This document shows, in pieces, positions 4,205 to 59,017 of a stretch of 64,000 nucleotides of DNA (position 1 is the first letter of the stretch; each line of letters starts with the position of its first letter). The stretch is taken from contig CAZPYM010000003.1 in the NCBI GenBank assembly GCA_964590105.1, positions 72,179 through 136,178 of the forward strand, in the 5' to 3' direction. The position numbers were made by a program, and so were the translations under genes. This DNA comes from an uncultured Gammaproteobacteria bacterium. Lineage in GTDB: Bacteria; Patescibacteriota; Patescibacteriia; UBA11705; JABHMO01. The notes under the pieces were generated by a model. The model made no database searches, was not told where the DNA came from, and saw nothing but the letters and a program-made list of their open reading frames with translations.

Positions 4205-4252
4205 TCAACCAATTAACCAATTAACTAATTAACTAATTAACCAATCAACTAA
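4205..4252. repeat. tandem AATTAACY heptamer array (about 6 copies) in the rpsL-rpsG spacer
   Basis: caaccaattaaccaattaactaattaactaattaaccaatcaactaag. The reverse-complement copy lies at 2911-2950, with related copies at 36541-36568 (inside argS) and 63781-63825. Confidence 0.8.
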
Positions 4253-4983: not shown

Positions 4984-7062
4984 ATGCCGAGAGAATATTC
5001 TTTAGAAAATACCAGAAATATAGGTATTATCGCTCACATTGATGCCGGTAAAACTACGGTTTCCGAGCGCATTTTATTTTACACTGGGAAAAAACATAAG
5101 ATAGGAGAAGTTCATGAAGGACAGGCGGAAATGGACTGGATGGAACAGGAAAAGGAAAGAGGCATCACTATTACTTCTGCCGCCACCACTTGTTTTTGGA
5201 ACGGCAAAAGAATTAATATTATCGACACTCCCGGCCACGTGGATTTTACCGCCGAAGTGGAACGATCTTTGCGTGTGCTTGATGGCGGCGTGATAGTTTT
5301 TGACGGCGTAGCCGGTGTGGAGCCGCAGTCTGAGACTGTATGGCATCAGGCCGTGAAATACAATGTTCCGCGCTTGGGATTTATTAATAAAATGGATCGC
5401 ATGGGCGCGGATTTTTATGCTGACATGGAATCTATTTATGAGAGATTGACCAAGGCCGCTCATCCTATTCAGTTGCCGATCGGCGCGGCTGAAACATTTA
5501 GAGGAATTATTGATTTATTTGAAAGGCGAGCTTACATTCATGAGGATGACCTCGGAATAAAAATTAATGAAATCGATGTTCCCGAAGACATGAAAGAAAA
5601 AACAGAAAAATACCGTGGAAAATTAGTCGAAGCTATAGTTGAAAACGATGAAGCTTTGATGGATAAATATTTAGCCGGAGAAGAAATCCCCGTCGCAGAC
5701 TTAAAAAGAGTTTTGCGCAAGGCGACAATAGAAAACAAAATTGTACCAATCTTAGTTGGCAGCGCTCTGAAGAACAAGGGAGTTCAGGCATTACTTGACG
5801 CGATTGTCGACTTTTTGCCCTCACCACTTGAAATTCCACCAATGCAGGGCACTGATCCAAACGATCCTGAAAAAGTCATTACTGTGAACGCCAGCGATGA
5901 AGAGCCTTTTGCCGGCTTGGCATTCAAGATTGCCACTGATCCATATGTTGGCAAGCTTTGTTTTGTGCGCGTTTACTCAGGAGCTTTAAGGTCAGGTTCA
6001 TATGTATTAAATACTTTCACTAATAATAAAGAGAGAATCGGACGTTTAGTGCGTATGCACGCCAATCATCGAGAGGAGGTTAGTGAAGCTTTTGCTGGTG
6101 AAATAGTCGCGGTTATTGGTTTGAAAAATACTTTTACAGGGCATACTCTTTGCGATGAGAGTCGACCGGTTATCCTGGAAAACATTGTATTTCCCGAGCC
6201 GGTTATTTCAGTTGCTATTGAACCGAAAACCAAGGCTGATCAGGAAAAAATGGGTATGGCTATGCAAAAATTGGCTGAAGAAGACCCGACCTTTAGAATT
6301 CGCACTGACGAAGAAACAATGCAAACAATTATTTCCGGCATGGGGGAACTTCATTTGGATATTTTGGTTGATCGAATGAAAAGAGAATTTGGTGTGGAAG
6401 CTAATATTGGTAAACCGCAAGTGGCTTATAAAGAAACAATTAAAAAGACTGCAGAAGCAGAGGGAAAATATGTTCGTCAGTCAGGTGGCCGCGGACAATA
6501 TGGTCATTGCTGGCTTAGAGTCTCTCCTCGAGAACGCGGAGAAGGATTTGAATTTTTGGATGAAGTCAAGGGGGGCGCAATCCCGCGAGAATTTATTCCG
6601 GCAATTCAAAAGGGAGTCAAAGAATCGTTAGACAAAGGAATTCTGGCGGGTTATCCGCTCATTGATGTTCAGGTCACTGTTTACGATGGTAGTTTCCATG
6701 ATGTTGACTCTTCTGAGGCGGCCTTTAAGATTGCCGGTTCTCTGGCTTTTCAGGAAGCCACAAAAAGAGCTTCCCTCGTTCTTTTGGAGCCGATTATGAA
6801 AGTGGAAGCTGTGGTGCCAGAAAAATTTTTGGGCGACGTGGTTGGTGATTTAAATTCAAAAAGAGCGCAAATAAATGAAATGAAAGATCGCGCAAATGCC
6901 AAGGTTGTTGAGGCTCAGGTGCCGCTGGCTGAAATGTTTGGTTATGCGACTTCACTCCGATCAATGACACAGGGGCGCGGCAGCTACTCAATGGAATTTC
7001 TAAAGTATTCTGAAGTCCCGGCCAATGTGGTTGAGGCAATCTTAGTCGCAAAGGGACGGTAA
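4984..7062 (+). CDS. fusA: elongation factor G
   Basis: Start chosen at [25 protein letters not shown] (G1 motif). Full-length EF-G with DTPGHVDF and NKMD motifs. Confidence 0.95.
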
Positions 7063-10875: not shown

Positions 10876-11370
10876 ATGGGATTGATTAATACAATTTTCA
10901 AATCCAAAAAATCAGAGACCAGGGCAAAGAAAAGCGATGATTTAAAAGAAACGGAAAAACCCGCAGTAGTTCAGGTTGCTCAGCAAAAAGAGGAAACAGA
11001 AAAGTCCGCGCCAAAGATTTCTCCGGAAAATAAATTGGAAAAATCAAATTACACACCTGCGATAAAGGTTTCTCAAAAAGATGACGCCACTGCCTACCGT
11101 ATGCTATATTATCCGTTGATTACGGAAAAAGCGACTGATTTAGTTCAATTTGGCAAATACTGTTTTGTAGTGCCTGTTAATGCTTGCAAAAATGAAATAA
11201 AGAAAACAATTATAAATGTTTACGGAGTTAGCCCCGCCAAAATAAATTTTGTCCGGCGCGAGGGCAAGCGGGTACGAGCCGGCAGAAGGTACGGACGAAC
11301 CAAGGCTTACAAAAAGGCAATTGTTACTTTACGGCCAGGAGACAAAATTGAATTGTACGAAGGCGTATAA
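10876..11370 (+). CDS. rplW: 50S ribosomal protein L23 (the annotated ORF carries an N-terminal Lys/Glu-rich extension of about 70 aa; the core may instead start near 11099)
   Basis: Core YPLITEKATDL...KTIINVYGVSPAKINFV. Upstream is low-complexity K/E sequence. Confidence 0.85.
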   Translation: MGLINTIFKSKKSETRAKKSDDLKETEKPAVVQVAQQKEETEKSAPKISPENKLEKSNYTPAIKVSQKDDATAYRMLYYPLITEKATDLVQFGKYCFVVPVNACKNEIKKTIINVYGVSPAKINFVRREGKRVRAGRRYGRTKAYKKAIVTLRPGDKIELYEGV

Positions 11371-11382
11371 AATTACCAAAAT

Positions 11383-12228
11383 ATGGGAATTAAAGTATAT
11401 AAACCGATTAGCAATGCTCGCCGCCAAATGAGCATGATTGATTCTTCCGGTTACACAAAGAAAAAACCGGAAAAGAGTTTGATTAGAATCAAGAAAAAAA
11501 CAGGCGGACGCAATGCCCAGGGGAAAATTACCGTTAGGCATATTGGTGGCGGAGCAAAGCGTTTTTGCAGAGAGATTGATTTCAAAAGAGACAAATTTGA
11601 TGTGCCAGCGATAGTAAAAGCAATAGAATACGATCCTGGCCGCACTTCTAGAATAGCGCTGTTGCAGTATCGAGATGGTCAAAAAAAATATATTGTCGCT
11701 CCGACAGAGTTAAAGATAAACGAAGAAGTTATTTCTTCTAAATCAAAAATTGAAATCAAGGCAGGCAACGCAACAATACTGGAAAATATTCCGATTGGCA
11801 CCTTGATTCATAGCATTGAAATGGTTCCGGGTAGAGGGGCTGAAATGGTCAGGTCAGCAGGCTCATGGTGTAAATTGATGGCGGTCGAAGGAAAATACGC
11901 CCAGCTGCGCTTGCCTTCATCTGAAATCCGTTTAGTCCCCAAAGAATGTATGGCGACGATCGGACAGGTTAGTAATCCTGAGCACATGCATATTAACATT
12001 GGCAAGGCTGGTAGGAAAAGACATATGGGAATCCGGCCGACAGTTCGGGGAAAAGCTATGAATCCGGTTGATCATCCGCACGGAGGCGGTGAGGGCGGTT
12101 GCCCTATTGGGTTAAAGCATCCGAAGACTCCATGGGGTAAGCCGGCGCTTGGACTCATTACCCGCAAAAGAAATAAAGCATCAAATAAATTTATTATACA
12201 GAGACGTAAGAAAAAAAGACGAAAATAA
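11383..12228 (+). CDS. rplB: 50S ribosomal protein L2
   Basis: ...[15 protein letters not shown]...[10 protein letters not shown]... Confidence 0.95.
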
Positions 12229-13181: not shown

Positions 13182-13850
13182 ATGGGAAAGAAAATAAATC
13201 CAAGAATTTTCAGAATAAAACAGACGCGCGGCTGGGACTCACGCTGGTTTTCTGGTAAAAATTACGCCAAATTTTTAAGGCAGGATTTATTGGTCAAAGA
13301 ATATTTAAAAAAGAAATTGCTAAATGCCTTTGTGTCTAGAATAAATATTGAAAGAACCGCCAAAGAGATAAATGTTATTATTTATTCCGCCAGGCCTGGG
13401 ATAATTATCGGACGGAGTGGTGCAGGCATTGAAGACATAAAAAAAGAAATCAGGCAAAAATTTTTGCCCGATCGCACAGCTAAACTGAATATTAATATCA
13501 AGGAGGTCGCAAATCCAAATTTAGATGCAAATATTGTTGCGCAAAGTATAAAGTTTGATATTGAAAAAAGAATTCCGTTCCGTCGAGCGATGAAGCAAGC
13601 TCTTGGAAAAGTAGAGAGGGCGGGCGCCAAGGGTGTGAAAATCAGAGTGGCCGGCAGATTGAATGGCGCTGAAATTGCCAGGACAGAAAAGGTGATTTCA
13701 GGCAAGGTGCCACTGCATACCTTGCGAGCAGATATTGATTATGCTTTAGTTGAAGCAAATACAATTTACGGAGTGATCGGTATTAAGGTCTGGATATATC
13801 TCGGAGAAATTTTTGAAAAAAAAGAAGTTACAACAAAAGAAAAAAATTAA
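13182..13850 (+). CDS. rpsC: 30S ribosomal protein S3
   Basis: MGKKINPRIFRIKQTRGWDSRWF... with KH and S3-C domains. Confidence 0.95.
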   Translation: MGKKINPRIFRIKQTRGWDSRWFSGKNYAKFLRQDLLVKEYLKKKLLNAFVSRINIERTAKEINVIIYSARPGIIIGRSGAGIEDIKKEIRQKFLPDRTAKLNINIKEVANPNLDANIVAQSIKFDIEKRIPFRRAMKQALGKVERAGAKGVKIRVAGRLNGAEIARTEKVISGKVPLHTLRADIDYALVEANTIYGVIGIKVWIYLGEIFEKKEVTTKEKN

Positions 13851-14744: not shown

Positions 14745-15116
14745 ATGATTCAAGCAAGCACAATATTAAAATGCGCAGATAATACCGGAGCGAAAAGGAT
14801 CCAGTGTATTAAGGTTCTCGATGGATATAAAAAAAGATACGCTAGATTGGGTGACGTTATTACCGTTAGCGTAAAAGAAGCCAAACCGCATAGTATGGTA
14901 AAGAAAGGGGAGGTTTTGCATGCAGTGGTGGTCAGGACAAAAAAAGAAACAAGGAGAACTGATGGATCATATATTCGTTTCAGCGATAATGCGGTAGTAA
15001 TAGTTGACAGAAAAAGCAAAGAGCCAAAAGGCACAAGAATTTTTGGGCCGGTGGCCAGAGAGTTGAGAAAACATGGATTTAATAAAATTTTGTCATTAGC
15101 GCCAGAGGTTTTATAA
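14745..15116 (+). CDS. rplN: 50S ribosomal protein L14
   Basis: [27 protein letters not shown]... Confidence 0.95.
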
Positions 15117-15129
15117 ATTTGTTATTATT

Positions 15130-15489
15130 ATGAAAATACGCAAAGGAGACAAAGTACAAATAATGAAAGGCAAGGATCGCGTCAAGCGGACAAAAAAGGG
15201 AGAAAAAAAAGAAAAGTCCAATCAGGGAAAGGTTGTCCAGGTGATTCCGGCCAAACAAAAAATCATTGTTGAGGGGCTGAATTTGAGATACAAACATGTC
15301 AGGCCGAAAAAAGAAGGAGAAAAAGGCCAGAGGATCGAATATCCATATCCGATTAATGTTGAAAACGTAATGCTGGTTTGCCCCAAATGTCATAAATCTG
15401 TCCGGGTGGCCTACAAACTATTGGATTCTGATCTGAAGGGTAGAAAAAAAATACGAATTTGTCGCAAGTGTAATGAGGCGATTGATTAA
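15130..15489 (+). CDS. rplX: 50S ribosomal protein L24 with a C-terminal CxxC...CxxC zinc-ribbon tail
   Basis: KOW motif MKIRKGDKVQIMKGKDRVK, then CPKCHK...CRKCNEAID. Confidence 0.88.
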   Translation: MKIRKGDKVQIMKGKDRVKRTKKGEKKEKSNQGKVVQVIPAKQKIIVEGLNLRYKHVRPKKEGEKGQRIEYPYPINVENVMLVCPKCHKSVRVAYKLLDSDLKGRKKIRICRKCNEAID

Positions 15490-17682: not shown

Positions 17683-18261
17683 ATGATTAAAAAAAAGGAC
17701 AATAAAAAAGGATCAAGAGCAGGGAAAAAGCCAGAGCAAGAGTTTGAGCAAAAAATAATTGATTTAGCGAGAATTACTAGAGTAATGGCCGGTGGTAAAA
17801 GAATGCGTTTTCGCGCCTGTGTTTGCATCGGAGACAAAAAGGGTCGAGTAGCCATTGGATTGGCCAAGGGTGCTGACGTAACGGTAGCGGTTAACAAGGC
17901 GGTTAATAAGGCTCAAAAGCAGTGGATTACTGTACCGATAATTAATGAAACTATTCCGCACGAGATCCGTACTAAACTTGGGGCAGCCAGATTACTTCTA
18001 AAACCAGCGCCAACCGGAACAGGTGTACGCGCCGGTGGCGCAGTTCGCGTGGTCCTGGAATTGGCCGGTGTGCCGAATATTGTCGGAAAGATCATGGGGA
18101 CAAATAACAAGGTGAATAATGTAAAAGCATTGATCAGCGCTTTGTCGTCATTTAATCCTGACGCGATTAGAAAAGCCAGAAATAAACAACAAAAGAAAGA
18201 TAATAAAAATAAAGCTGAAGTGACTGAAGATAGCGTGAAGAAAGAAGAGGATAAGGAATAA
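17683..18261 (+). CDS. rpsE: 30S ribosomal protein S5 with a C-terminal extension
   Basis: ...ITRVMAGGKRMRFRACVCIGDKKGRVAIGLAKG... The next gene is rplO, so there is no intervening L30 gene. Confidence 0.93.
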   Translation: MIKKKDNKKGSRAGKKPEQEFEQKIIDLARITRVMAGGKRMRFRACVCIGDKKGRVAIGLAKGADVTVAVNKAVNKAQKQWITVPIINETIPHEIRTKLGAARLLLKPAPTGTGVRAGGAVRVVLELAGVPNIVGKIMGTNNKVNNVKALISALSSFNPDAIRKARNKQQKKDNKNKAEVTEDSVKKEEDKE

Positions 18262-18319
18262 AAATTAATAAAACAAGAAATTAAGAAAATAATAAGGAAT
18301 AAGAAAATAAGAATATAAT

Positions 18320-21690: not shown

Positions 21691-22077
21691 ATGAACTATC
21701 TTGGACTTGATTGGGGAAAAGCAAAAATTGGTTTGGCGATTGGCAGCGATGAAGTCAAAATCGCCAGCCCGATTTTAATATTGAGGTCAACGGGCGGGCA
21801 GGATTTAATTTTTAAATTGCGAGAAATTATTGAACAGGAAAACATTGAAGCGATTGTTGTTGGCAAGCCGGTCAGTTTAAGCGGGCAAATGGGAGAATCG
21901 GCTGAGTTTGATAATTTTGTAGCCGGTCTGGAATCTTTGGGTGTCAGGGTGGAGGTGGAAGACGAGAGACTGTCAACAAAAATGGCGCAAAAACTGCAAC
22001 GCGGCGCAGAAAAAAAAGGAGATGATGATGCCCTGGCTGCAGCGATTATTTTGCAGTCATATTTTGACCGGCTATAA
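21691..22077 (+). CDS. ruvX: Holliday-junction resolvase-like YqgF/RuvX
   Basis: MNYLGLDWGKAKIGLAIGSDEVKIASPI... RNase H-like YqgF. Confidence 0.85.
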   Translation: MNYLGLDWGKAKIGLAIGSDEVKIASPILILRSTGGQDLIFKLREIIEQENIEAIVVGKPVSLSGQMGESAEFDNFVAGLESLGVRVEVEDERLSTKMAQKLQRGAEKKGDDDALAAAIILQSYFDRL

Positions 22078-23725: not shown

Positions 23726-24406
23726 ATGAAGTATTTTGTATGTTTCTTTCTGGCCCTCATTTTCAGTTCATGTATAAAACGAGTTGATTGGGGTGAGTTT
23801 GTCCCTTTGGACGAGCTTTCAGTTGATTCTGATATTAATGTTGGCGAAACAGAGATTTTTCAGCTATTGGATGGTAGCGGTGAGCAACACGAGAATTTGT
23901 TTGATTCTATCACGTCTGAGTTATTGGATACAAATATTGCCCCCCTGAGAGAGATAAAAGAGACCGTATCCGTTGATGTGCTGGTTTGTGCTCCGGGCTA
24001 TGTCTGGAGCGAAGCGCAGGGCAAGTGCGTTTCATTCTGCGCGGCTGATCAGTATTATGAAGCAAAACTGGGCAAGTGCGTATACTACCCGTGCTGTGAT
24101 CTTTCCGGCGACTGGGAATTAAGCATACTTGATTCAGACACAATGCTTTTTACGATCTATCAGGTAAAGATCAATCAGCTGACATCGTACTTGGAAGGTG
24201 AGGCAAAATGTGTTTTACCGTTGGAACAGGCGGATTGTTACGGTTTGCTTGAAGACAAAAAATTCGCGTTTAATTGCGTGAGCAATGATTACACGCTGGT
24301 GCTCACGTCCGGACTGGCGACAGTAACTTCATTTATTGGATTTTACAGTTACCAGTACACTGATGGTAATTTTAAAAATGGTTCGTTCAACGTAAAAAAA
24401 TTATAA
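23726..24406 (+). CDS. lipoprotein paralog 2 (Cys-rich C-terminal domain)
   Basis: Start MKYFVCFFLALIFSSC (lipobox). AAGGAG RBS. The C-terminal 150 aa are about 85-90% identical to the previous gene, and there is long nucleotide identity as well. Confidence 0.7.
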   Translation: MKYFVCFFLALIFSSCIKRVDWGEFVPLDELSVDSDINVGETEIFQLLDGSGEQHENLFDSITSELLDTNIAPLREIKETVSVDVLVCAPGYVWSEAQGKCVSFCAADQYYEAKLGKCVYYPCCDLSGDWELSILDSDTMLFTIYQVKINQLTSYLEGEAKCVLPLEQADCYGLLEDKKFAFNCVSNDYTLVLTSGLATVTSFIGFYSYQYTDGNFKNGSFNVKKL

Positions 24407-24476
24407 ACAAAACAGGTCCGATCATCCGGGCCGTTTTAATTTTATTAATAAATTGTATATAAAAATTAATTTTAAA

Positions 24477-24505
24477 AAGAAAAAGAGGCGAATGTTCGCC
24501 TCTTT
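24477..24505. terminator. bidirectional terminator hairpin (serves minus-strand gene 24530..25708)
   Basis: aagaggcga-atgt-tcgcctctt with T-runs on both strands. Confidence 0.6.
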
Positions 24506-24529
24506 CTTTGTTGTGACAGAGTTATTTTT

Positions 24530-25708
24530 CTATCTCTTTTCTTTTGCCTTGGCCCTGACCGCCTGGCACCAGGGCAAGCCCCAGACGTACCAGGGGCAAG
24601 CGTTTTCCGGCTTGGACGCGCACATGCCCATCTGACAGAGCGCGGCGCGAGCCGGTTCAAAGGTCTCCGGACAAACCGCCACCTTGATCAGCTCGCAGAT
24701 ATCCGCGAGCGGGATCATGGTCGGCGTGGTGGCGGGAGCAGTGATGCTCCCGTTCAGCAGGAACTGGCCTTCGTGATGGAAATACCACACACCGGAGGGG
24801 CCCATGCCTTCGTCCGACAGTTCCCGCCAGTTGTTTACGATGACCTTGCCGCGAACCTTCTGCTCTTCATAGCGCAAGACTCGCGCCAGGGTGAAAAGCT
24901 TCAGGTTGGCACGGCGGGCCGTGTGAATGGTCACATGACCGGCCGGTCGTCTCTGGACAACGATGTCAGCGTTGGCGCCGTCCTTGAAGCGGCCGGCGCG
25001 GCCGATTTCGTTGTTGTCCGATTCGATGGCCAGGAGAACAAGCGTGCGCTCGTTCGGGCCCTTGATCTTGCTGATCTGGCCCTTTTCTTTGATTTCCTCG
25101 AGCGCGGCCTTGAAGGCCTCGTCCTGCGCCTTTTCCGCGTCAGCGGTATAGGCCAGCCAGTTCGCCGCGGAAATCTCAGGCTTGTTCGGATTCTGCTCGA
25201 CGAGTAGTTTGCCGAAATAGTCCTTGCCGAACTCCTTGGTTTTCTTCTCCGCCCGAATCTTGGCGCGGATGGCCACAAGGGCCCAGTCGATGATCTCGGC
25301 GGTCTGTTCCGAGAAAACCCGGTGCAGCATGTTCACGTACGTGGCCAGCCCACCAGGCTGATCGCGTCCGTGGAGGTCATTGTCCAGGACATAGGACAGA
25401 ACCTCCTTCAGTTCCTCGTTGTCCCGGACGCCGAGTGCCCTCGCCACCAGTGTGGCCGCGCATTCGTCCTCTTTCTTCGCCTCCCCGTTGGCGGGATGCT
25501 CATCAAACTCGCCACCCAGCACTCCGACGTGGATGATGCCGTGTGGACAGTGCGTTTTTAGAAACTCCTTGGTGCCGTACAGCTCAAGGAGGGAGATTGC
25601 CGCGATTTCCTCCACGTGGAGGGCGGCGTGAGTGAGAAACCAGATCTTCCGGCCTGCGACCGTGATCTGGAATCGGATGAAATTCCCTTGTCTTTCTATT
25701 GTTTTCAA
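24530..25708 (-). CDS. hypothetical protein (392 aa) on a GC-rich island. Apparent TTG start. His-rich N-terminal region and a Cys-cluster C-terminus.
   Basis: Long ORF with strong GC3 bias in about 57% GC DNA, a G-rich RBS and a terminator. Motifs THAALHVEE, HCPHGIIHVGVLGGEFDEH and 5 Cys in the last 45 aa. I cannot assign a family. Confidence 0.55.
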   Translation of the reverse strand: MKTIERQGNFIRFQITVAGRKIWFLTHAALHVEEIAAISLLELYGTKEFLKTHCPHGIIHVGVLGGEFDEHPANGEAKKEDECAATLVARALGVRDNEELKEVLSYVLDNDLHGRDQPGGLATYVNMLHRVFSEQTAEIIDWALVAIRAKIRAEKKTKEFGKDYFGKLLVEQNPNKPEISAANWLAYTADAEKAQDEAFKAALEEIKEKGQISKIKGPNERTLVLLAIESDNNEIGRAGRFKDGANADIVVQRRPAGHVTIHTARRANLKLFTLARVLRYEEQKVRGKVIVNNWRELSDEGMGPSGVWYFHHEGQFLLNGSITAPATTPTMIPLADICELIKVAVCPETFEPARAALCQMGMCASKPENACPWYVWGLPWCQAVRAKAKEKR

Positions 25709-25935
25709 TTTTCCCCCCTATTTTGGTTGTCAATTTGCAAACTCTACGAAATCGTATTATAGCATATAAAAATTTAAATGTCAAGCTGTTTTAGCTATTT
25801 TTAGCTAAAATTGCTATTTATATTAAGTTCCAAAAAGACCATTGACAAGAATAAAAAAATTGGGTAAGCTTATTTGATATATTTGTTCATTTATTGAAAT
25901 TTCTAAACGTTGTTCGAGCTTTACAAGGAGGCGCA

Positions 25936-26808
25936 ATGGCAGGAAAAAGCAAAACCGGTTTTATCGAACGAGCTATGGCTAAAGTGGCCAAGCAGATTGA
26001 AAAATTGATTGAAGAAGAAGGAAAAATGCGGATGCGTTGGGTAAAGGGTTACCACCGCATGCAACGCGCGGCGCAGGGTTTGACAAAGATTACGAGACTG
26101 AAAACCAAGAGAGCTGAAAGTTTTGGGAAGATTGTCAATTCCTGGATGCAGGAATCAATAGGCATGACCAAGGCGCGTGACGCCAAGCGAGCGCAAAGGG
26201 AAGCCAAAGAAAAAGAGCTTCAGGAATTGAAGTTACAATTGGTTAAACTGCAGGCTGAAATCAACCGCGTGACCGGTGAAACCGATGAAATCGTGGACCA
26301 GGTTTTCAGTCTGAATGACGCAGTGGTGGCGGCGCTCGAGTCGCGGCAGGCATATCTCAGCAATCATGTGTTTCATCGTTTGATCGGCGACAATGGGGAG
26401 ATGCGCAGTCAGATCACGTTTGACAGCAAGGACGGTTTGCGCCGGGTGGTGGTTATGGTGAATCATATAACCAAGGTTCAGACCGACTTGGCTAACGCGG
26501 CCATGCTCGAGATTGATAAGTTTTTCACCCGCTTTGGCGTTGAAACCGCAGAAGACAGGCTGGAACCGGAAGTGCAGGCGCTGTACAAGCTGACGCGCGA
26601 GATCTTGATTTCACGCCAGACATTCAAGGTCGGACGGGATTTGTATCGGTTCCTCGGAATTGAGATTGATGAAGGCATTTTCCCCGAATTGTACAAGGCT
26701 CAGATGCTCCTGCGGCGCAGTCTGCGCAGTGAGAAAACCAATTCATACATTCGCTTGTCCAAACGAGCAAACATGAATGACAAGTGGCAGGCATTGCCCC
26801 TGCACTAG
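25936..26808 (+). CDS. hypothetical coiled-coil protein (291 aa) on a GC-rich island, divergent from the previous gene
   Basis: AGGAGG RBS 7 nt upstream of ATG 25936. N-terminal K/R/E coiled coil, then a C-terminal globular part. High GC3. Followed by a strong terminator. Confidence 0.55.
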   Translation: MAGKSKTGFIERAMAKVAKQIEKLIEEEGKMRMRWVKGYHRMQRAAQGLTKITRLKTKRAESFGKIVNSWMQESIGMTKARDAKRAQREAKEKELQELKLQLVKLQAEINRVTGETDEIVDQVFSLNDAVVAALESRQAYLSNHVFHRLIGDNGEMRSQITFDSKDGLRRVVVMVNHITKVQTDLANAAMLEIDKFFTRFGVETAEDRLEPEVQALYKLTREILISRQTFKVGRDLYRFLGIEIDEGIFPELYKAQMLLRRSLRSEKTNSYIRLSKRANMNDKWQALPLH

Positions 26809-26913: not shown

Positions 26914-26989
26914 GCTCGTATAGCTCAGTGGTTAGAGCACCGCCCTTATAAGGCGGGGGTCGATGGTTCAAATCCATCTACGAGCACCA
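26914..26989 (+). tRNA. tRNA-Ile with anticodon UAU (as read from the loop CTTATAA)
   Basis: 76 nt cloverleaf: acceptor GCTCGTA/TACGAGC, D arm GCTC-AGTGGTTA-GAGC, anticodon stem CCGCC/GGCGG, T arm GATGG-TTCAAAT-CCATC, encoded CCA. The scaffold closely resembles bacterial tRNA-Ile(GAU) but has TAT in the anticodon. Confidence 0.75.
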
Positions 26990-30844: not shown

Positions 30845-33800
30845 ATGGAGATACCCAAAGCCTACGATCCGAAAGAGCATGAAAGCCGGATTTATAAAAT
30901 GTGGGAAGAGGCCGGGCTTTTTAATCCGGACAATTTGGAGCCTAAATCCAAAAAGCATTTTTCCATTGTTTTGCCGCCGCCAAATGTTACCGGCACACTG
31001 CACCTGGGGCATGCGGCCATGCTCGCAATAGAAGATTTAATGGTCCGTTACAAAAGGATGAATGGTTTTGATACCCTCTGGATGCCTGGCACTGATCACG
31101 CGGCGATTGCCACGCAAAACGTGGTTGAAAAAAAGCTTTACAAGGAAGAAAAAAAGACCAGGCACGATCTGGGTCGTGAGAAATTTTTAAAAAAAGTTGA
31201 GCAGTATGTGGAAGGCTCAAAAAATGTTATTCATAATCAATTGCGCAAAATGGGTTCAAGCCTGGACTGGAGCCGCGAAGCGTATACTCTCGATGAAGTC
31301 AGAAGCAAGGCAGTAAAAAAGGTTTTCAAACAAATGTATGAAGACGGGCTGATTTATCGGGGTTATCGGATTGTCAATTGGTGTCCGCGCTGCCATTCAA
31401 CGCTCGCGGACGATGAGGTTGATTACAAAGAAGAAAAAGCCAAGATTTACACTTTTAAATACGATAAAAATTTTCCATTTGCTATCGCCACAACGCGGCC
31501 GGAAACCAAACTTGGGGACACGGCAGTGGCTGTGCATCCTGACGACAAGCGCTATGCAAAATATATCGGTAAAACATTTGTCGCTGATTTCTGTGGTGTT
31601 AAGTTGAATATAAAAGTAATTGCCGATGATCAGGTTGAAAAAGATTTTGGCACCGGCGCGCTTGGCGTAACCCCGGCGCATAGTTTGATTGACTACGAAA
31701 TGGCGCAAAAAAATAAATTGCCGGTGATTAAAGTTATTGACGAGGATGGAAAAATAACGGTGGCTGGCGGAAAATTTCAGGGATTAAGCGCGGAACAGGC
31801 AAGAGAAAAAATTGTTGAAGAATTAAAAAAGCAGGGGCTTTTGGAAAAGCAGGAAGAGAATCAGCACAATTTATCTGTTTGTTACCGTTGTAAATCAGTA
31901 GTGGAGCCTTTGCCGAGCGAGCAATGGTTTATCAGTATAAGTTCAAAGTTCAAAGTTAAAAGTGAAAAGTTGAGAAAAATAATCGGGAAAAAAGAGGCAA
32001 GCTTGAAGGAAATTTCGCTCGCCGTGGTAAAGAGCGGGTCGATAAAAATAATTCCAGAGCGTTTTGAAAAAATTTATTATCATTGGATGGAAAATTTGCA
32101 TGACTGGTGTATTTCCCGGCAGATTTGGTTTGGGCACAGGATCCCTGTTTGGTACAAAAAGCAAAAACAAATTATTGTTTTGCGGCACGGACAGGCGGAA
32201 AGCAATGCCCGAGATCAGCTGAATTCCGATATTTTGCGGAATCATTTTCACTTGACCGTAGAGGGTAGGGAGCAGGCGGCCGCGGCGGCGGAAGAGCTGC
32301 AAAAAGAAAAAATTGACATTATTTTTTGTTCTGATTTCGAACGGGCAAAACAAACCGCCAAAATAGTTGCCGACAAATCGGGGATTAAGCAAATTATTGA
32401 AGACGCCAGACTCAGGGAAGTGGGAGTGGGGGATTTCGAAGGCAAATCCGATATGGACTTTACCAAATTTCGTCAGCAAAACTTTGACAAGTGGCATAAA
32501 GGAAATCCGCATAACATCGAGTCCTTTGTTGAATTAAGAAGCCGTGTATTTAATTTTCTTGACGAAATAAAACAAAAGTATGGAGATAAAAAGATTTTAA
32601 TGGTAACGCACGGCGATGTGGCGCGAGTGGCGCAGGCATACGGAAAAATTTTATCGGATAAAGAAATTTATGGCCTTGATTATCCGGATACCGGAAAGTT
32701 TTATCGCGTTGATTTAAATCAAAAAACATCTGGAATCGAACTTAGTTTTCGTAATCGAAAAATATTTGAAGCGATTAAATCCGGCAGCAAAACCATTGAA
32801 ACCAGAGCTTTGAATCCTGAAGAGCCGGATCGTTATTTTGGCAATATTAAAGGCGGCGATCAGATAATTTTGAATTATAAGCAAGGGGAGTATATTTTAG
32901 AAAGTTTAAAATCAAAAGTCAAAGCGGCGAGGCGGTACAAAACCATTGAAGAATTGTTAGCCAAGGAAAAGATGTCTAAAATTTTTCCCGGCAAAAACAT
33001 TGATTATAAAAAATCCTATTCTGATCTGGTGCCCGGAAATTTGGAAAAAATAAGCAAGAACGGAATAATAGCTTTTGAGCTTGGAAAAGTTGAAAAGTAT
33101 AATAAAAATATCACGCTTCGCGTTTCTGAAGAAGAACTGCCGGCTGCCGAATGGAAACAAGATGAGGATACTCTTGATACCTGGTTTTCTGCAGGTCTTT
33201 GGACTTTCAGTACGCTCTTGCCGAAGGATTGGGACGGAAAAGAATTTAAATCCAAGGATTTGGAACGATTTCATCCAACGACCGTGCTGGAAACCGGTTA
33301 TGACATTTTGTTTTTCTGGGTGGCGAGGATGATACTCATGACCACTTATGCGACGGGCGAAATACCTTTTGAAACAGTTTATCTGCACGGCCTGATTCGC
33401 GACAAAGACGGCGACAAAATGAGCAAATCCAAACCAGAGACGGCGATTGATCCGGTTGAAGCCGGCAATAAATATGGATTTGACGCGGTGCGTTTGAGCT
33501 TGCTTATCGGCAATACGGCGGGCAATGATATTCGGCTTTATGATGAAAAGATTGAGGGGTACAGGAATTTTGTTAATAAGTTGTGGAATATTAGTCGGTT
33601 TGTGTTGCAAAATAACAAATTACAAGACACAAATTACAAGCAAATTACAAATAACAAATTACAAACAGTTGCATTGACTTTAGCGGATAAGTGGATACTT
33701 TCGCGATTCAATAAGTTAAAATGCGAGGTAAATAAATTGCTGGATGAATATAATTTTTCACAGGCCGGCGAGATTTTGCGGGAATTTACCTGGAATGATT

Positions 33801-34483
33801 TTGCCGACTGGTATTTGGAAATTTCAAAAGTTGCCCTTCGGCAAGATCAGGGTGACAATCGAAATTTAATTTTGAATTCAATTTTTCGGGAATTGCTGAA
33901 ATTGTGGCATCCTTTTGTGCCGTTTGTGACAGAGGCTGTTTGGTCCCTCGCTATGCTCGGGATGACACAGCAAGCAAAAAGTATTATGGTTTCTGATTGG
34001 CCAGCGGTCGAAAAGGGATTAATTGATGAAAAAGCGGAAAAAGGATTTGAAAAAATTCAAGAAATAATTATTAAAATCAGAAATTTGCGGGCTGAATACA
34101 AAGTCAATCCGGGGAAGAAGATTTCTGTTTCCATCAAAGGCGCTTCAATTGGCGAAAATGAAATAGTTGTAAAAACCTTAGCTCGTCTGGAAAAAATTAC
34201 TTACGTAAAAATAAAACCGGAAAAAGCAGCCGGCGCGGTTGTCGGTAAAAGGGAGATTTATTTGTTGTTATCAGATTTGGTTGATGTTGATAAAGAAAAA
34301 GAGAGACTGGAAAAAGAAAAAGCCGACCTTGAAAAATATTGCTTCGGATTGGATAAAAAACTTCAGAATAAAGAGTTTACGAAAAATGCTCCGGTGGCCG
34401 TGGTTGACGGAGAGCGGGCAAAACTCACGGAGGCGGAAGAAAAATTAGGAAAAACAAATACGCAATTAAGTGAATTAAAATAA
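30845..34483 (+). CDS. valS: valyl-tRNA synthetase carrying an in-frame histidine-phosphatase (PGAM-like) + ASCH domain insertion
   Basis: HLGHA (HIGH), CP1 editing domain (TTRPETKLGDTAVAVHPDD), DWCISRQIWFGHRIPVWY, KMSKS, and a C-terminal coiled coil. Between WY (about 32154) and QDEDTLDTWFS (about 33158) about 330 extra residues contain IVLRHGQAESN and VTHGD (histidine phosphatase) and G-SKTIETR (ASCH). Length is 1212 aa against roughly 880 typical. Confidence 0.9.
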   Translation: MEIPKAYDPKEHESRIYKMWEEAGLFNPDNLEPKSKKHFSIVLPPPNVTGTLHLGHAAMLAIEDLMVRYKRMNGFDTLWMPGTDHAAIATQNVVEKKLYKEEKKTRHDLGREKFLKKVEQYVEGSKNVIHNQLRKMGSSLDWSREAYTLDEVRSKAVKKVFKQMYEDGLIYRGYRIVNWCPRCHSTLADDEVDYKEEKAKIYTFKYDKNFPFAIATTRPETKLGDTAVAVHPDDKRYAKYIGKTFVADFCGVKLNIKVIADDQVEKDFGTGALGVTPAHSLIDYEMAQKNKLPVIKVIDEDGKITVAGGKFQGLSAEQAREKIVEELKKQGLLEKQEENQHNLSVCYRCKSVVEPLPSEQWFISISSKFKVKSEKLRKIIGKKEASLKEISLAVVKSGSIKIIPERFEKIYYHWMENLHDWCISRQIWFGHRIPVWYKKQKQIIVLRHGQAESNARDQLNSDILRNHFHLTVEGREQAAAAAEELQKEKIDIIFCSDFERAKQTAKIVADKSGIKQIIEDARLREVGVGDFEGKSDMDFTKFRQQNFDKWHKGNPHNIESFVELRSRVFNFLDEIKQKYGDKKILMVTHGDVARVAQAYGKILSDKEIYGLDYPDTGKFYRVDLNQKTSGIELSFRNRKIFEAIKSGSKTIETRALNPEEPDRYFGNIKGGDQIILNYKQGEYILESLKSKVKAARRYKTIEELLAKEKMSKIFPGKNIDYKKSYSDLVPGNLEKISKNGIIAFELGKVEKYNKNITLRVSEEELPAAEWKQDEDTLDTWFSAGLWTFSTLLPKDWDGKEFKSKDLERFHPTTVLETGYDILFFWVARMILMTTYATGEIPFETVYLHGLIRDKDGDKMSKSKPETAIDPVEAGNKYGFDAVRLSLLIGNTAGNDIRLYDEKIEGYRNFVNKLWNISRFVLQNNKLQDTNYKQITNNKLQTVALTLADKWILSRFNKLKCEVNKLLDEYNFSQAGEILREFTWNDFADWYLEISKVALRQDQGDNRNLILNSIFRELLKLWHPFVPFVTEAVWSLAMLGMTQQAKSIMVSDWPAVEKGLIDEKAEKGFEKIQEIIIKIRNLRAEYKVNPGKKISVSIKGASIGENEIVVKTLARLEKITYVKIKPEKAAGAVVGKREIYLLLSDLVDVDKEKERLEKEKADLEKYCFGLDKKLQNKEFTKNAPVAVVDGERAKLTEAEEKLGKTNTQLSELK

Positions 34484-35675: not shown

Positions 35676-35730
35676 AGTTGTAAGGTTGTAAGTAAATTAC
35701 TACTTACTCACTTACAACTTTTAAATATAT
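35676..35730 (+). terminator. imperfect inverted repeat / terminator after tyrS
   Basis: agttgtaaggttgtaagtaa ... ttactcacttacaact followed by ttttaaat. It is built from the TTGTAAK repeat family. Confidence 0.4.
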
Positions 35731-36244: not shown

Positions 36245-37960
36245 ATGTTAGAGATAAAAAATAAATTAGCAAAAGTGCTTAGTGAGATTTTAAAGGTGGA
36301 AATCAATCCGGAAGATTTTACCGAGCCGCCGAAAAATGTTGAAGCAGACCTGGCTTTGCCGTGTTTTACTTTGGCCAAGGAACTAAGACGCGATCCGAAT
36401 GAGATTGCCGGCGAGTTGGGAGCAATGGTCAATGCGAAAAATTTAGTTATTATTGAAAAAGTAAAGTCGCTCGGCCCTTATATGAATTTTTTTATTGATT
36501 CGGAATATTTGGCGCAAGCTGTTTTATATTCTCAATTAACGAATGAACCAATTAACCAATTAACTAAAATCATGGTAGAATTTGCGCATCCAAATACGCA
36601 CAAAGCATTTCATATCGGGCATTTGCGAAATATTATTACCGGCGAATCAATTGTCCGGATTTTGCAAAACGCTGGATACAAAGTTACCCGGGCGAATTAT
36701 CAGGGTGATGTCGGTCTGCATATTGCCAAGGCGCTCTGGGGAATTGATCAGCTTCGGAATGAATACAAAGAAGTTAAGAAAAAGGACTTAGACGATAAAG
36801 TCGGGTTTTTGGGCAAAGCCTATGCGCTTGGCGGCCAGACATTTGAAAAAGATGAAAAAGCAAAACAAGAAATTTACAAGTTGAATGAAAAAATTTATAA
36901 CAAAGAAAAGTCGATTCAAGATGTTTATAAAACAACCAGGGCTTGGAGCCTGGAATATTTTGATAAAGTTTACAAACGAGTTGATTCACACTTTGACAGG
37001 TTATATTTTGAATCCGAGGTTTTTGAAAAGGGAAAACAAATTGTTTTGAAGTTTCTGGAAAAGGGCGTATTCAAGAGAAGCGAGGGCGCGGTCATATTTG
37101 AAGGTGAAAAATATGGCTTGCACAGCCGCGTTTTTGTCAATAGTTTGGATTTTCCGACTTACGAAGCCAAAGATCTGGCGCTGGCTGAAGCGCAGTTCAA
37201 AGAGTTTAAGCCGGACAGAATTATTCATGTTGTCGGCAAAGAACAAACAGAATATTTCAAGGTAGTATTTAAAGCACTTGAATTTACCCTACCGAAAAGC
37301 AAGGGCAGGGAAGAGCATCTGGCTTACGGCTGGGTTTCTTTGAAGTCCGGCAAAATGAGTTCGCGAACCGGGCAAGTTATTTTGGGCGAATGGCTTTTGG
37401 ATGAGATTGAAAAAAGAATTGCGGCAATTATGAAAGATAGTCCAGCGAAAGATAAGGATTTAATTATTAAAAAAGTTGCGTTGGCGGCTGTTAAATACGC
37501 GATGCTAAAGATTGGCGTCAAAGTTGATATGGCTTTTGATATTGAAGAATCCGTGAATACTTCTGGCGACAGTGGACCGTATTTACTTTACATTGTGGCG
37601 AGGATAAAGAGCATTTTGAAAAAGGTAAAGGGTAAAAGTGAAAAGCATGCCCTGAGCATGGTCGAAGGGTTAAAAGGAATTGAATCAATTAAGATAAATG
37701 AATATGAAAAAAGTTTGCTTTTAAAAGTGGCAAAGTTTGAGGAGGCGCAAGAGCTGGCGGCAAAAGAGCTGGATCCGTCGCAAATTGCCAAATACTTGTT
37801 TGAACTGGCGCAGGAATTCAATGGTTTTTATCACGAGTGTCCGGTATTGCAAGCTGAACAGGCTATTCAGGCATTTAGAATCAATTTAATAAAAAAAGTT
37901 GAGCAGACAATGACCAAAGGTCTAAATTTACTTGGAATCGAGCCTGTTGATGAAATGTAG
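36245..37960 (+). CDS. argS: arginyl-tRNA synthetase
   Basis: HPNTHKAFHIGHLRN (HIGH) and GKMSSRTG (KMSKS). An in-frame AACCAATTAACCAATTAAC repeat at 36541-36568 encodes EPINQLTK. Confidence 0.92.
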   Translation: MLEIKNKLAKVLSEILKVEINPEDFTEPPKNVEADLALPCFTLAKELRRDPNEIAGELGAMVNAKNLVIIEKVKSLGPYMNFFIDSEYLAQAVLYSQLTNEPINQLTKIMVEFAHPNTHKAFHIGHLRNIITGESIVRILQNAGYKVTRANYQGDVGLHIAKALWGIDQLRNEYKEVKKKDLDDKVGFLGKAYALGGQTFEKDEKAKQEIYKLNEKIYNKEKSIQDVYKTTRAWSLEYFDKVYKRVDSHFDRLYFESEVFEKGKQIVLKFLEKGVFKRSEGAVIFEGEKYGLHSRVFVNSLDFPTYEAKDLALAEAQFKEFKPDRIIHVVGKEQTEYFKVVFKALEFTLPKSKGREEHLAYGWVSLKSGKMSSRTGQVILGEWLLDEIEKRIAAIMKDSPAKDKDLIIKKVALAAVKYAMLKIGVKVDMAFDIEESVNTSGDSGPYLLYIVARIKSILKKVKGKSEKHALSMVEGLKGIESIKINEYEKSLLLKVAKFEEAQELAAKELDPSQIAKYLFELAQEFNGFYHECPVLQAEQAIQAFRINLIKKVEQTMTKGLNLLGIEPVDEM

Positions 37961-39365: not shown

Positions 39366-39480
39366 AATTTATACGAATAATGCGAATATGTATGCGAATG
39401 ATGCGAATTGCGAATAACGCGAATAGTATAGTTCGTAATATTCGCGATTTGCGATATTCGTATTAAAATTCGCGAAATTC
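39366..39480. repeat. cluster of GCGAAT/ATTCGC-type repeats, including the core ATGCGAATGATGCGAATT at 39393-39410
   Basis: Dense, both-orientation GCGAAT hexamers upstream of the ferredoxin gene. The same 15-18-mer recurs at 39696-39715 and 52975-52994, and as a reverse complement at 4935-4972. Confidence 0.8.
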
Positions 39481-39494
39481 GCGTTAAACTATTT

Positions 39495-39680: not shown

Positions 39681-39760
39681 CACGAATGAGCCGCAACGCG
39701 AATGACGCGAATTAGAAGTTTATATGATTGTCAGGCTGATTCGTGTCATTCGTGTCGAGT
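39681..39760. repeat. GCGAAT-family repeat cluster downstream of the ferredoxin (ACGCGAATGACGCGAATTAG, and the inverse-orientation variant GATTCGTGTCATTCGTGTCG)
   Basis: Shares a 17/18-nt core with 39393-39410 and 52975-52994. It contains both orientations. Confidence 0.8.
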
Positions 39761-39782
39761 CTGTTTATTCGTATTTATTTAT

Positions 39783-39868
39783 GCCCAGGTGGTGGAATCG
39801 GTATACACACATGGTTGAGGGCCATGGCTCTTCGGGGCGTGCGGGTTCAAGTCCCGCCCTGGGCACCA
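39783..39868 (+). tRNA. tRNA-Leu (anticodon GAG), class II with a long variable arm
   Basis: 86 nt. Acceptor GCCCAGG/CCTGGGC, anticodon loop TTGAGGG, variable arm GCTCTTCGGGGC, T arm GCGGG-TTCAAGT-CCCGC, encoded CCA. Confidence 0.8.
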
Positions 39869-39996
39869 TGAATTTTAGAATGAGTACAAAGCTAGATTTC
39901 ATGGTAAAACATTTGTTTAGTTTTTCGGTAGATTCGAATCTCGGGTTCATGCTTGCCGTGTACCCGAACGAAGAGTAGAACTCCGGTAAATTACCA

Positions 39997-47983: not shown

Positions 47984-48030
47984 ATTGTAATTTGTAATTT
48001 TTGCTTTATCGTTTGTAATTTGTTTTTGTA
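47984..48030. repeat. TTGTAATT tandem/dispersed repeat array
   Basis: ttgtaatttgtaattt ... tttgtaatttgtttttgtaatttgtaatc. The reverse complement of this motif occurs in frame inside valS (33611-33668). Confidence 0.75.
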
Positions 48031-48049
48031 ATTTGTAATCTAAACTATT

Positions 48050-49173: not shown

Positions 49174-49965
49174 ATGGAGTTGAGCATAATAATTTTAAAT
49201 TACAAAATGAAGGGCTTGGTTAAAAATTGCGTCAAGACTATTTTTGAGTCTGAATTTGATCAGCCCTATGAAATAATTGTTGTGGATAATAATTCCGGCG
49301 ATGGAGTTGAAGCTATGCTTCAGGAGAGATTTCCACAAGTTAAATTTATCCAAACCGGCGCAAACCTGGGAATGGGCGCGGGAAACAACGCCGGAATTAA
49401 TGCAGCGCTGGGAAAATATGTTTTAATAATGAATCCTGATATTTTTGTGTCCAGGGATTCTTTGCAAAAACTTTATGATTATATTAGCCAGCGGTCTGAT
49501 GTTGGTCTGGTGGCGCCGCGCTTGTTAAATCCCGACAAAACCTTGCAATACACGTGCTATCGCTGGCATAAATTTTTAACGCCGGCTTTGCGACGTACTT
49601 TTTTTGGTAAAATTAAATGGGCGCAGAAAGAGTTGGATCGTTTTTTAATGCGGGACTGGGATCATGCATCAACTCGTGAAGTAGATTGGATCCAGGGCTC
49701 GTGCCTGCTCATTCCTAAAAAAGTGATTGATGAAGCCGGAGCTTTTGACGATCGTTTTTTTATGTATTTTGAGGATACTGATCTTTGTCGGCGAATTCGA
49801 AAAGCCGGATACAAAAATGTTTATTTGGCAGAGGCTGAAGTTGTTCATCTGCACCGCCGCCAGTCAGCTGATCAGAGCGGCCTGAAGTCTTTGTTCAGCA
49901 AACTGACCAGGATTCATATTGCCAGCTGGATGAAGTATATGTTGAAGTGGAAGGGGGAAAGTTAA
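49174..49965 (+). CDS. family 2 glycosyltransferase
   Basis: MELSIIILNYKMKGLVKNC...IIVVDNNSGDG... Confidence 0.8.
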   Translation: MELSIIILNYKMKGLVKNCVKTIFESEFDQPYEIIVVDNNSGDGVEAMLQERFPQVKFIQTGANLGMGAGNNAGINAALGKYVLIMNPDIFVSRDSLQKLYDYISQRSDVGLVAPRLLNPDKTLQYTCYRWHKFLTPALRRTFFGKIKWAQKELDRFLMRDWDHASTREVDWIQGSCLLIPKKVIDEAGAFDDRFFMYFEDTDLCRRIRKAGYKNVYLAEAEVVHLHRRQSADQSGLKSLFSKLTRIHIASWMKYMLKWKGES

Positions 49966-50046
49966 AAGTTAAAAGGTAAAAGGGGAAAAGGGAAAAGGTA
50001 AAAGGTAAAAGGGGAAAAGGGAAAAGGGAAAGGGGAAAAGGGAAAA
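49948..50046. repeat. tandem heptamer minisatellite (GGKAAAA)x~14 with G3-4 tracts
   Basis: gttaaaa gttaaaa ggtaaaa ggggaaaa gggaaaa ggtaaaa ggtaaaa ggggaaaa gggaaaa gggaaa ggggaaaa gggaaaa gggaaaa. It begins at the stop of the GT2 gene and ends before a terminator hairpin. Confidence 0.9.
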
Positions 50047-50058
50047 GGGAAAAGTAAG

Positions 50059-50082
50059 ACAGCCTGGAGGCTGTTTTTTTGT
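50059..50082 (+). terminator. Rho-independent terminator
   Basis: acagcc-tgga-ggctgt followed by a T7 run. Confidence 0.7.
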
Positions 50083-50123
50083 TTGCTCGATGTTGTAAAA
50101 TTAGCTAAAAGCAGTTGCCTAAC

Positions 50124-58704: not shown

Positions 58705-59017
58705 CGGGCACTCATTCTTGTCATTTCGACCATCGTGGAGAAATCACAAGAATGGAGAAGGGATTTCTCGACTCCTCCTTCGTCGTCGCTCGAAATGACA
58801 AAAATGGGGAAGCGGACGTCGCTCGAAATTGCCAAAGATCTTGGCTATGTTTCAGAATATGAATATAAAGTTCTGCTCGAACAGTCCATTAAAGTCCACA
58901 AAATCACCAAGGGCTTAATAAAGAGGACTCGCTCCCTCTCAACATGATTTATGCTTCATTCTTCATGTTTCATGCTTAATTCATAATTCATTATTCATAA
59001 TTCATACTTCAAATTTT

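Follow-up and report, generated by a model that had tools for sequence, protein, structure and literature searches.

Tandem arrays of 7-8-nt units recur in linkers of essential aminoacyl-tRNA synthetases in Patescibacteria

How do short tandem repeats, with units that are not multiples of three, come to stand in frame inside essential genes? The question is raised by a 64,000-nt stretch of patescibacterial DNA (contig CAZPYM010000003.1, positions 72,179 to 136,178; hereafter the window), in which the valyl-tRNA synthetase gene valS and the arginyl-tRNA synthetase gene argS contain segments resembling the repeats of intergenic spacers. The initial annotation, made from the letters alone, proposed that intergenic repeat families had invaded these genes in frame and that the insertions were tolerated as low-complexity surface loops. 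In the reading that we favour as probable, the segments are short tandem arrays of non-triplet 7-8-nt units, left by a repeat-generating process acting across the candidate phyla radiation (CPR), with some re-seeding among loci and with selection that leaves arrays in permissive linkers, and the encoded peptides are passengers.

The window valS gene (30845-34483, + strand) encodes a valyl-tRNA synthetase (ValRS) of 1212 aa with the Pfam domains tRNA-synt_1, Anticodon_1, Val_tRNA-synt_C and His_Phos_1. Its product matches the Thermus thermophilus ValRS 1GAX (E=1.9e-185), and its nearest ValRS proteins come from Patescibacteria (CPR), with Falkowbacteria-like names. The gene hosts two arrays. 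R1 (31939-31971, +) is a degenerate 7-nt array of AAGTTCA/AAGTTAA/AAGTGAA units that encodes SSKFKVKSEKL (ValRS aa 365-376) and was reported by Tandem Repeats Finder (TRF) with period 7, unit AAGTTAA, 4.7 copies, score 45 and 88% matches. Its departures from pure AAGTTAA are located precisely at the would-be TAA stops, where AGT TCA and AGT GAA are found instead. R2 (33610-33668, +) is a degenerate 7-nt array of about 8 copies of AAATTAC/CAAATTA (TRF: 33610-33665, period 7, unit AAATTAC, 8.4 copies) and encodes NNKLQDTNYKQITNNKLQT (ValRS aa 922-941) in the loop that joins the NKLWNxSRF helix to the anticodon-binding domain.

The argS gene (36245-37960, +) encodes an arginyl-tRNA synthetase (ArgRS) of 571 aa, identified by Pfam Arg_tRNA_synt_N, tRNA-synt_1d and DALR_1 and by PDB matches, and it hosts one clear and one weak array. 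The clear array, four copies of the 8-nt unit CAATTAAC at 36533-36567 (+; TRF: 36533-36564, period 8, 4.0 copies, score 50), encodes QLTNEPINQLTK in the linker that connects the N-terminal domain to the catalytic core. Here a single T>G change (AAT GAA) abolishes the TAA that a pure array would create. The weak array (37620-37638, +; 2.7 copies of an AAAAGGT-like unit, TRF score 31) went unlisted in the initial annotation and encodes KKVKGKSEK at ArgRS aa about 458-465. Weak taken alone, it belongs to the AAAGGTA family and aligned to the intergenic arrays at 49951 and 63714. The three segments originally singled out (R1, R2 and the clear argS array) lie and read as described, and they are genuine tandem-repeat DNA, alike in kind to the cited intergenic arrays, which also exist. 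Reading frames are preserved as claimed, with intact open reading frames (ORFs) and homology on both sides of each array.

Short repeats in short-read metagenome assemblies might be assembly errors, or chance low complexity in AT-rich DNA. In the window, TRF found 23 arrays with 2.8 copies or more, of which 16 have period 7-8 and 11 score at least 45, compared with means of 1.6, 0.5 and 0.04 in 50 dinucleotide shuffles and with 3, 0 and 1 in a 50-kb stretch of E. coli that includes valS. The locus was also recovered from two further assembly sources, ENA and JGI, and these copies are identical to the window; the ORFs are intact, with recognisable homology to either side of the arrays, and the pattern is repeated in more than 100 independent assemblies. 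We regard an artefact as effectively refuted. The window arrays are degenerate (67-88% matches), those in genes having 4.0-8.4 copies and scores of 45-77. Of the 16 arrays with period 7-8, ORFs contain only three, each of them in valS or argS.

To place the window among its relatives, we drew 164 related loci, designated here by L numbers, from genomes in GTDB, from metagenomes and by exact look-up; 141 were left once duplicates had been removed. In the 1.35 Mb of CPR DNA from the first 83 loci, 7 nt is the modal array period, with 174 arrays compared with 82 of period 8, 54 of period 9 and 42 of period 6. Within the ORFs of these 83 loci, period 7 is also the commonest (86 arrays versus 36 of period 6 and 34 of period 9), which runs contrary to the usual triplet rule. 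Per kb of the non-redundant set, arrays of period 7-8 number 0.86 in spacers, 0.27 in valS, 0.24 in argS, 0.10 in tyrS and 0.063 in the remaining ORFs of 100 aa or more. Among the regions sampled, valS and argS are thus the main hosts, and since their array density so exceeds that of other ORFs, the original emphasis on synthetases was justified. Adenine makes up 54% of the coding strand in 124 arrays within aminoacyl-tRNA synthetase genes, compared with 33% over valS as a whole. An A-rich coding strand together with mutated stops is the pattern expected from selection against stops and hydrophobic peptides.

The arrays are not scattered evenly. When 141 arrays in the 141 non-redundant valS genes (76 of period 7, 25 of period 8) were mapped on the window ValRS coordinates, 39 fell at aa 918-948, 26 at aa 434-460 and 15 at aa 360-386, so that three hot spots, together covering about 7% of the protein, account for 57% of all arrays. 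Two of the three are the sites noticed first in the window, and the strongest, with 39 arrays in 37 of the 141 loci, is the R2 site. Its hypervariable loop runs from the conserved 'NKLWNxSRF' helix to 'DKWIL' (window aa 921-947). Among the first 83 loci, the tyrosyl-tRNA synthetase (TyrRS) carries five arrays at aa 330-332, and ArgRS carries seven arrays from seven loci at aa 459-474, the site at which the weak window array at 37620-37638 lies. The link between the repeats of these genomes and protein evolution is therefore stronger than had been claimed, as three ValRS sites and the TyrRS and ArgRS linkers carry 7-8-nt arrays in many CPR genomes.

Units at a given site differ from lineage to lineage. 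At the R2 site, (caaatta)x5 in L083 is identical to the window unit, and other loci have (attacga)x4-5 (L026, L027, L107 and L110 of the Falkowbacteria lineage), (aaattca)x4 (L008), (aaattcc)x4 (L052), (acaagct)x5 (L010), (aaattgtc)x4 (L033), (gtcgaaa)x4 (L098), (cagccga)x4 (L104) and (ccgaagt)x4 (L115), and more exist. Units at the R1 site include (aagtgca) in L084, L085 and L087, (aaacacaa)x5 in L012, (aaatcaa)n in L005, (aattatg) in L068 and (cagacag/cagacgg) in L027. The peptides encoded at one site are unrelated from lineage to lineage. Arrays in L083, L026, L027, L008 and L052 are pure, with 4-5 copies. In yet other lineages (e.g. L030, L014, L066, L077 and L099), the R2 site holds perfect in-frame hairpins.

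Perfect hairpin elements thus stand in frame in the same ValRS and ArgRS linkers in other CPR lineages (L030, 4504-4596; L084, 2730-2795; L085, 2643-2708). A palindromic core, ACGCAAAATTTTGCGT, recurs in the valS R2 site of L084 and L085, in the argS linker of L045 (around 15041-15056) and in another valS loop of L095 (2909-2924); it was not found in the window even when three mismatches were allowed. L012 and L095 both have (agatttc)n at R2, and the L012 array is interrupted by a 30-nt hairpin (valS gene alignment columns 1928-1992). The hot spot at aa 434-460 coincides with a different feature of the window protein, in which a module of ~320 aa (ValRS aa 443-765; window 32171-33139) is inserted directly after 'IPVWY'. 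It consists of His_Phos_1 (aa 443-626, E=1.3e-37) and, after it, a region resembling ASCH (PF04266, E=8e-4, slightly below the gathering score). A His_Phos domain is present in many CPR ValRS of 1060-1110 aa, and the point at which the His_Phos/ASCH module is inserted is the array hot spot of the orthologues.

Are these segments lineage-specific insertions in floppy loops? For R2 the model agrees with a floppy loop. In an AlphaFold2 model of aa 760-1212, the predicted local distance difference test (pLDDT) score falls below 50 at aa 927-937, with confident helices on either side (aa 900-923 and 946-967), the loop is 10 aa longer than in 1GAX, and its sequence is found in no relative but L083. 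R2 is therefore a low-confidence, hypervariable loop that is modelled as disordered. R1 is modelled as a strand and a short helix with pLDDT of about 87 (AlphaFold2). It is 19 aa longer than in T. thermophilus ValRS, with a length and position common to many CPR ValRS: its length is that of a 38-aa form widespread in CPR ValRS, e.g. 'EFVLPHSNIDGIQSGEKVTLKKL'. R1 is also orthologous to the equal-length (AAGTGCA)n arrays of L084, L085 and L087, loci in which the ValRS core is about 73-75% identical. R1 is thus a conserved structural element, the DNA of which turned periodic in some clades.

The argS array adds only 3 aa compared with T. thermophilus ArgRS, and the window linker is shorter than that of most CPR orthologues. 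In ArgRS linkers of orthologues, extracted via tblastn, the usual sequence is '..YG..GKGKK', and in the window argS the array stands in its place. From this comparison, the argS array appears to be a replacement of the linker rather than an insertion. Tolerance as a low-complexity loop thus describes R2, which may also be a lineage-specific insertion (apart from the copy in L083); both descriptions fail for R1, which is structured and shared among CPR, and the insertion claim fails for argS as well. The original idea was correct in outline and under-stated in scope, but its details are wrong for two of these segments.

Comparison of loop lengths bears on how the arrays arise. R2 loops with arrays have a median of 23 aa, compared with 20 aa in those without (p=0.08), and R1 arrays accompany the long 38-aa form (38 versus 28 aa; p=4e-5). 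Since R2 loops barely lengthen and R1 arrays go with the 38-aa form, the arrays mostly replace linker sequence rather than only add to it. Orthologous arrays also switch unit in concert while their length stays constant. At R1, L096 has (aaacacaa)x5 and L095 has (aaacacga)x5, with equal lengths and a nucleotide identity of about 90%, and the window has the R1 unit aagttca where L084, L085 and L087 show aagtgca. Gaps between close pairs say little about step sizes, since at the divergences available whole loops, not single steps, have been exchanged. Because a 7-nt unit cannot add single copies in an essential gene, viable events must be 21-nt steps, block replacements or compensated pairs.

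Repeats of 7-8 nt that shift the frame are reminiscent of contingency loci, in which short non-triplet repeats inside or just 5′ of genes toggle expression by frameshift (phase variation). Some lineages do have pure arrays of 4-5 copies, and some of the window arrays flank glycosyltransferase genes. However, contingency loci are pure and hypermutable and lie in dispensable surface or restriction genes, whereas the hosts here are essential housekeeping synthetases in which an off state would be lethal. The degeneracy of the window arrays would suppress slippage, and three independently assembled copies of the locus are identical. We therefore consider phase variation highly improbable.

If one process generates arrays within a genome, its loci might share units. 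We defined a shared unit as one that is identical in any rotation and on either strand, and the null was drawn from cross-genome arrays matched in unit length and G+C count. With the discovery window excluded, 140 loci contained 25 same-genome pairs with identical units, compared with 10.0 +/- 3.0 expected, and 0 of 5000 permutations reached 25; same-genome identity is thus 2.5 times expectation. In an earlier set of 83 loci that included the window, 15 pairs more than 600 bp apart shared a unit (4.3-4.8 expected; 0 of 2000 permutations reached 15). Some of these cases stand out. In L026, AATTACG occurs in valS (3778-3809) and tyrS (6674-6704), and both arrays read ITNYELRITN. L060 has GAAGTAA in tyrS and argS (13370-13400 and 15439-15471), L012 has AACACGAA (11 copies) in valS and a second ORF (11341-11429 and 21695-21830), and L083 has AAATTCG both in valS R2 and in a 9-copy spacer array.

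The same comparison weighs on a simpler account, in which each array is born locally by slippage of whatever 7- or 8-mer was present, unit matches are coincidences among few AT-rich units, and the arrays have only mutation bias in common. Identical units are indeed frequent across genomes as a baseline, at 4.2% among 7-mers containing one G/C and 3.6% among 8-mers containing two. Independent recurrence is possible too, as CAAATTA is found at R2 in both the window and L083, which are non-sister lineages, and nearer relatives of each are without the unit; units can therefore recur independently or persist by continual homogenisation. Purely local births do not predict the excess of same-genome identity found with the window excluded, nor the non-trivial units common to different genes of L026, L060, L012 and L083, and we consider this account doubtful.

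Sharing between coding and intergenic arrays is less pronounced. Nine such identical-unit pairs were found, compared with about four expected (p about 0.02), a result that depends on counting the window, which contributes two of the nine. In the window alone, two of the three coding arrays share their exact unit with window intergenic arrays (the third differs by one base), compared with about 0.3 expected (p about 0.04 in a rough Poisson estimate), which is modest evidence and a weak test against local births. The coding and intergenic arrays of the window, aligned with their flanks, show no homology beyond the repeat units and no shared termini; unrelated flanks are what local births would produce. 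These alignments also led us to reject, for the window, a mobile element that has defined ends. The proposed invasion from spacers into genes is not supported: flanks share nothing beyond the units, the sharing is modest, and there is no sign of a spacer-to-gene direction.

The unit families dispersed in the window are AAATTAC (33610 and 47985), AATTAACC (2906, 4203 and 36533) and AAGGTAA/AAGTTAA (31939, 49951 and 63714). R2 is, as originally noted, the reverse complement of a spacer family at 47985-48039 (- strand; 8 copies, TTGTAAT on the + strand) that ends 10 nt 5′ of the start of a family 2 glycosyltransferase (GT2) gene, and the exact 10-mer CAAATTACAA occurs in the whole 64 kb only in valS (4 sites, +) and in the spacer at 47985-48035 (3 sites, -). 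The argS segment likewise belongs to the family of a spacer array at 4203-4252 (+; AATTAACC, 5.9 copies), situated between an rpsL-like ORF (3727-4143) and rpsG. The exact 17-mer CCAATTAACCAATTAAC occurs only at 4209 in this spacer and at 36548 in argS; with up to two mismatches there are 8 matches, compared with 0.07 expected, including one on the other strand in the spacer at 2925-2949. This last match falls in a third locus of the AATTAACC/AATCAAC family (2906-2947, -), which is in the opposite orientation and 31 nt upstream of an M50 peptidase gene.

The match between R1 and its spacer family is looser than was stated. The array concerned (49951-50054, +) is real and, with 13.6 copies, the longest of the window, but AAAGGTA/AAAGGGG makes up most of it, the R1 unit AAGTTAA being confined to the first two copies (49959-49972). 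The array begins within the last codons of a GT2 glycosyltransferase gene (stop codon 49963-49965) and is followed by a terminator-like hairpin at 50061-50085 (cagcctggaggctg and a T run). A further intergenic array of the AAGGTAA/AAGTTAA family lies at 63714-63744 (+).

Four spacer arrays end 1-10 nt before start codons: 18257-18318 before ORF 18320 (after rpsE), 35697-35720 before ORF 35729, 47985-48039 before the GT2 gene at 48050, and 58977-59015 before thrS at 59018. As these arrays reach so close to the start codons, there is no room for a separate Shine-Dalgarno sequence. Such positions (18318/18320, 35720/35729, 48039/48050 and 59015/59018) invite a functional explanation, in which the arrays act as nucleic-acid elements (regulator sites, ribosome standby or leader sequences, internal signals) or else encode selected Lys-rich loops that aid tRNA binding. 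The TAACTGA repeats of Beggiatoaceae are placed likewise and were proposed to regulate translation (PMC4679880). The coding arrays are rich in Lys and Asn, and one could take their repeated appearance at the same sites of the proteins as a sign of selection.

On the other side of this explanation, units and peptides at a given site are wholly different among lineages and are elsewhere swapped for unrelated hairpins, R2 is modelled as disordered, and the hot spots are linkers of variable length in all bacteria. Orientation relative to the downstream gene also varies (arrays at 2906 and 4203). Rfam at the gathering threshold gave only three tRNAs in the window and no match to the arrays; hence no T-box or other known RNA accounts for them. 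A function for the arrays therefore seems improbable to us, and the array-encoded peptides most likely have no specific function. A heptad or coiled-coil interpretation of the 7-aa peptide period was dropped on inspection, as the hydrophobic positions show no a/d pattern.

We return to the probable reading of a CPR-wide repeat-generating process constrained by selection. Slipped-strand or template-switch amplification of 7-8-nt units would create, homogenise and replace arrays, with some exchange or re-seeding among loci within one genome. In spacers, arrays would build up freely, to about 0.9 per kb. In genes nearly all would be purged, since steps of 7 or 8 nt put the sequence out of frame and most orientations yield stops or hydrophobic peptides. 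The survivors would be those located in a few linkers that permit them, within large multidomain proteins, with the A-rich strand coding and with point changes that remove stops, and they would be read through as peptides rich in K/N/Q/T/I/E. The valS and argS hot spots would be rewritten repeatedly, each time with the lineage's own unit and sometimes by small hairpin elements.

Several points weigh against this reading. R2 loops gain only about 3 aa, so simple expansion is insufficient and replacement at near-constant length needs explaining. We infer the viable types of step (21 nt, block replacement, compensated pair), none of which was directly observed. No strain-level length polymorphism was seen: the retrieved copies of the locus (L001 and L002) are identical, and other relatives share at most 82% aa identity. 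Near-identical pairs among the other loci (99-99.96%) likewise showed no gaps. R1, being confidently modelled and conserved in its clade, is not predicted to be a floppy loop, and the repeat must have overwritten or co-evolved with a structural element. The permutation null controls for unit G+C count only and leaves out genome-specific oligonucleotide bias. Sharing between coding and intergenic arrays is modest and in part driven by the discovery window. Finally, gene calls in the related loci are crude longest-ORF calls.

The closest known systems are, conceptually, Rickettsia palindromic elements (RPEs) and then Borg repeats, and, anatomically, the short tandemly repeated repetitive (STRR) sequences and TAACTGA heptamers. 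RPEs measure about 100-150 bp. Like the arrays described here, they are a family of short non-coding repeats that abounds in a reduced genome and is found both between genes and in frame in ORFs, housekeeping genes included, at tolerated positions (PMC1166351); in R. felis, 85 of 728 RPEs lie inside ORFs (PMC1166351). The likeness extends to the hairpins that other CPR loci carry in frame at these ValRS and ArgRS sites. Unlike RPEs or miniature inverted-repeat transposable elements, the window arrays are direct 7-8-nt repeats with no palindrome, defined ends or full-length consensus, and unlike RPEs, the CPR arrays occupy the same positions in the proteins again and again, their sequences differing from lineage to lineage.

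The STRR1-3 and TAACTGA systems use one or a few fixed units per genome. Cyanobacterial STRR sequences are 7-bp tandem repeats (PMC2670836), and TAACTGA heptamers, found in Beggiatoaceae, cyanobacteria and Bacteroidetes, have been proposed as translational regulators (PMC4679880). Both resemble the CPR arrays as 7-nt tandem arrays at many dispersed, mostly intergenic loci, often just 5′ of starts and occasionally overlapping ORFs (PMC2670836, PMC4679880). For TAACTGA, such overlaps mainly affect protein ends or hypothetical proteins (PMC4679880), whereas here many units per genome, 8-mers among them, occupy internal linkers of essential synthetases in another phylum. TAACTGA is absent among the TRF units of the window. 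On this comparison, the window arrays are an analogue of the named heptamer families, not a member.

Borg tandem repeats are, like those of the window, pervasive, fast-evolving and A-rich, occur in spacers and ORFs, encode low-complexity or disordered peptides and form in a genome-specific manner (PMC9879509). In Borg ORFs, every unit is a multiple of three in length, and the repeats are near-perfect and enriched in extracellular and membrane proteins (Schoelmerich et al. 2023; PMC9879509). In contrast to these amino acid tandem repeats, the window units measure 7, 7 and 8 nt, the commonest genic unit is 7 nt and is read in three frames, and the arrays are short, often degenerate and located in cytoplasmic essential enzymes. 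By a Borg-like disorder criterion, R2 (pLDDT below 50) and R1 (about 87, structured) part company. In Plasmodium and similar AT-rich genomes, slippage-derived segments rich in Asn and Lys lie in surface loops that separate conserved blocks of essential enzymes, including aminoacyl-tRNA synthetases. These tracts are eukaryotic and mostly codon-periodic (triplet) or homopolymeric, and we know of no matching intergenic unit families or 7-nt periodicity among them. We found no paper on such repeats in CPR/Patescibacteria among open-access papers and bioRxiv.

Other features of the window were noted in passing. Spacers at 39374-39488 contain 9-nt arrays of CGAATAATG/ATTCGCG type. A mechanically called ORF at 39724-39978 overlaps tRNA-Leu(GAG) (39783-39868) and is probably no gene. 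ARAGORN called a tRNA-Ile with anticodon UAU at 26914-26989, adjoining tRNA-Val(GAC); in most bacteria AUA is decoded by a lysidine-modified CAU tRNA. The stretch 24001-26000 has a G+C content of 0.50, compared with about 0.40 elsewhere. An ORF within it (24530-25708) is among the few on the minus strand, and this DNA may be of foreign origin or under different constraints.

These results show that the spacer repeats of CPR genomes are not limited to non-coding DNA and have a recurrent, mappable footprint in essential translation enzymes. The footprint provides a natural map of the ValRS, ArgRS and TyrRS linkers that tolerate arbitrary sequence, and it puts annotation and phylogenomic pipelines at risk of misaligning or over-interpreting array segments. 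It is also a tractable case of non-triplet repeats persisting in ORFs, given that the Borg comparison shows triplet-compatible units only, and the question it poses to CPR biology is the cause of the preference for 7-nt units. As a bolder and more tentative proposal, Patescibacteria may possess a generator of 7-8-nt arrays that is active throughout the lineage, uses unit families particular to each genome and repeatedly rewrites the same few interdomain linkers of essential enzymes (ValRS aa about 365, 440 and 930; TyrRS about 330; ArgRS about 100 and 465), each unit being read in all three frames, and that perhaps opens entry points for larger acquisitions such as the His_Phos/ASCH module at aa 434-460. 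If true, a non-triplet repeat process would be one of the main sources of innovation in protein length, in a phylum that is otherwise noted for genome reduction.

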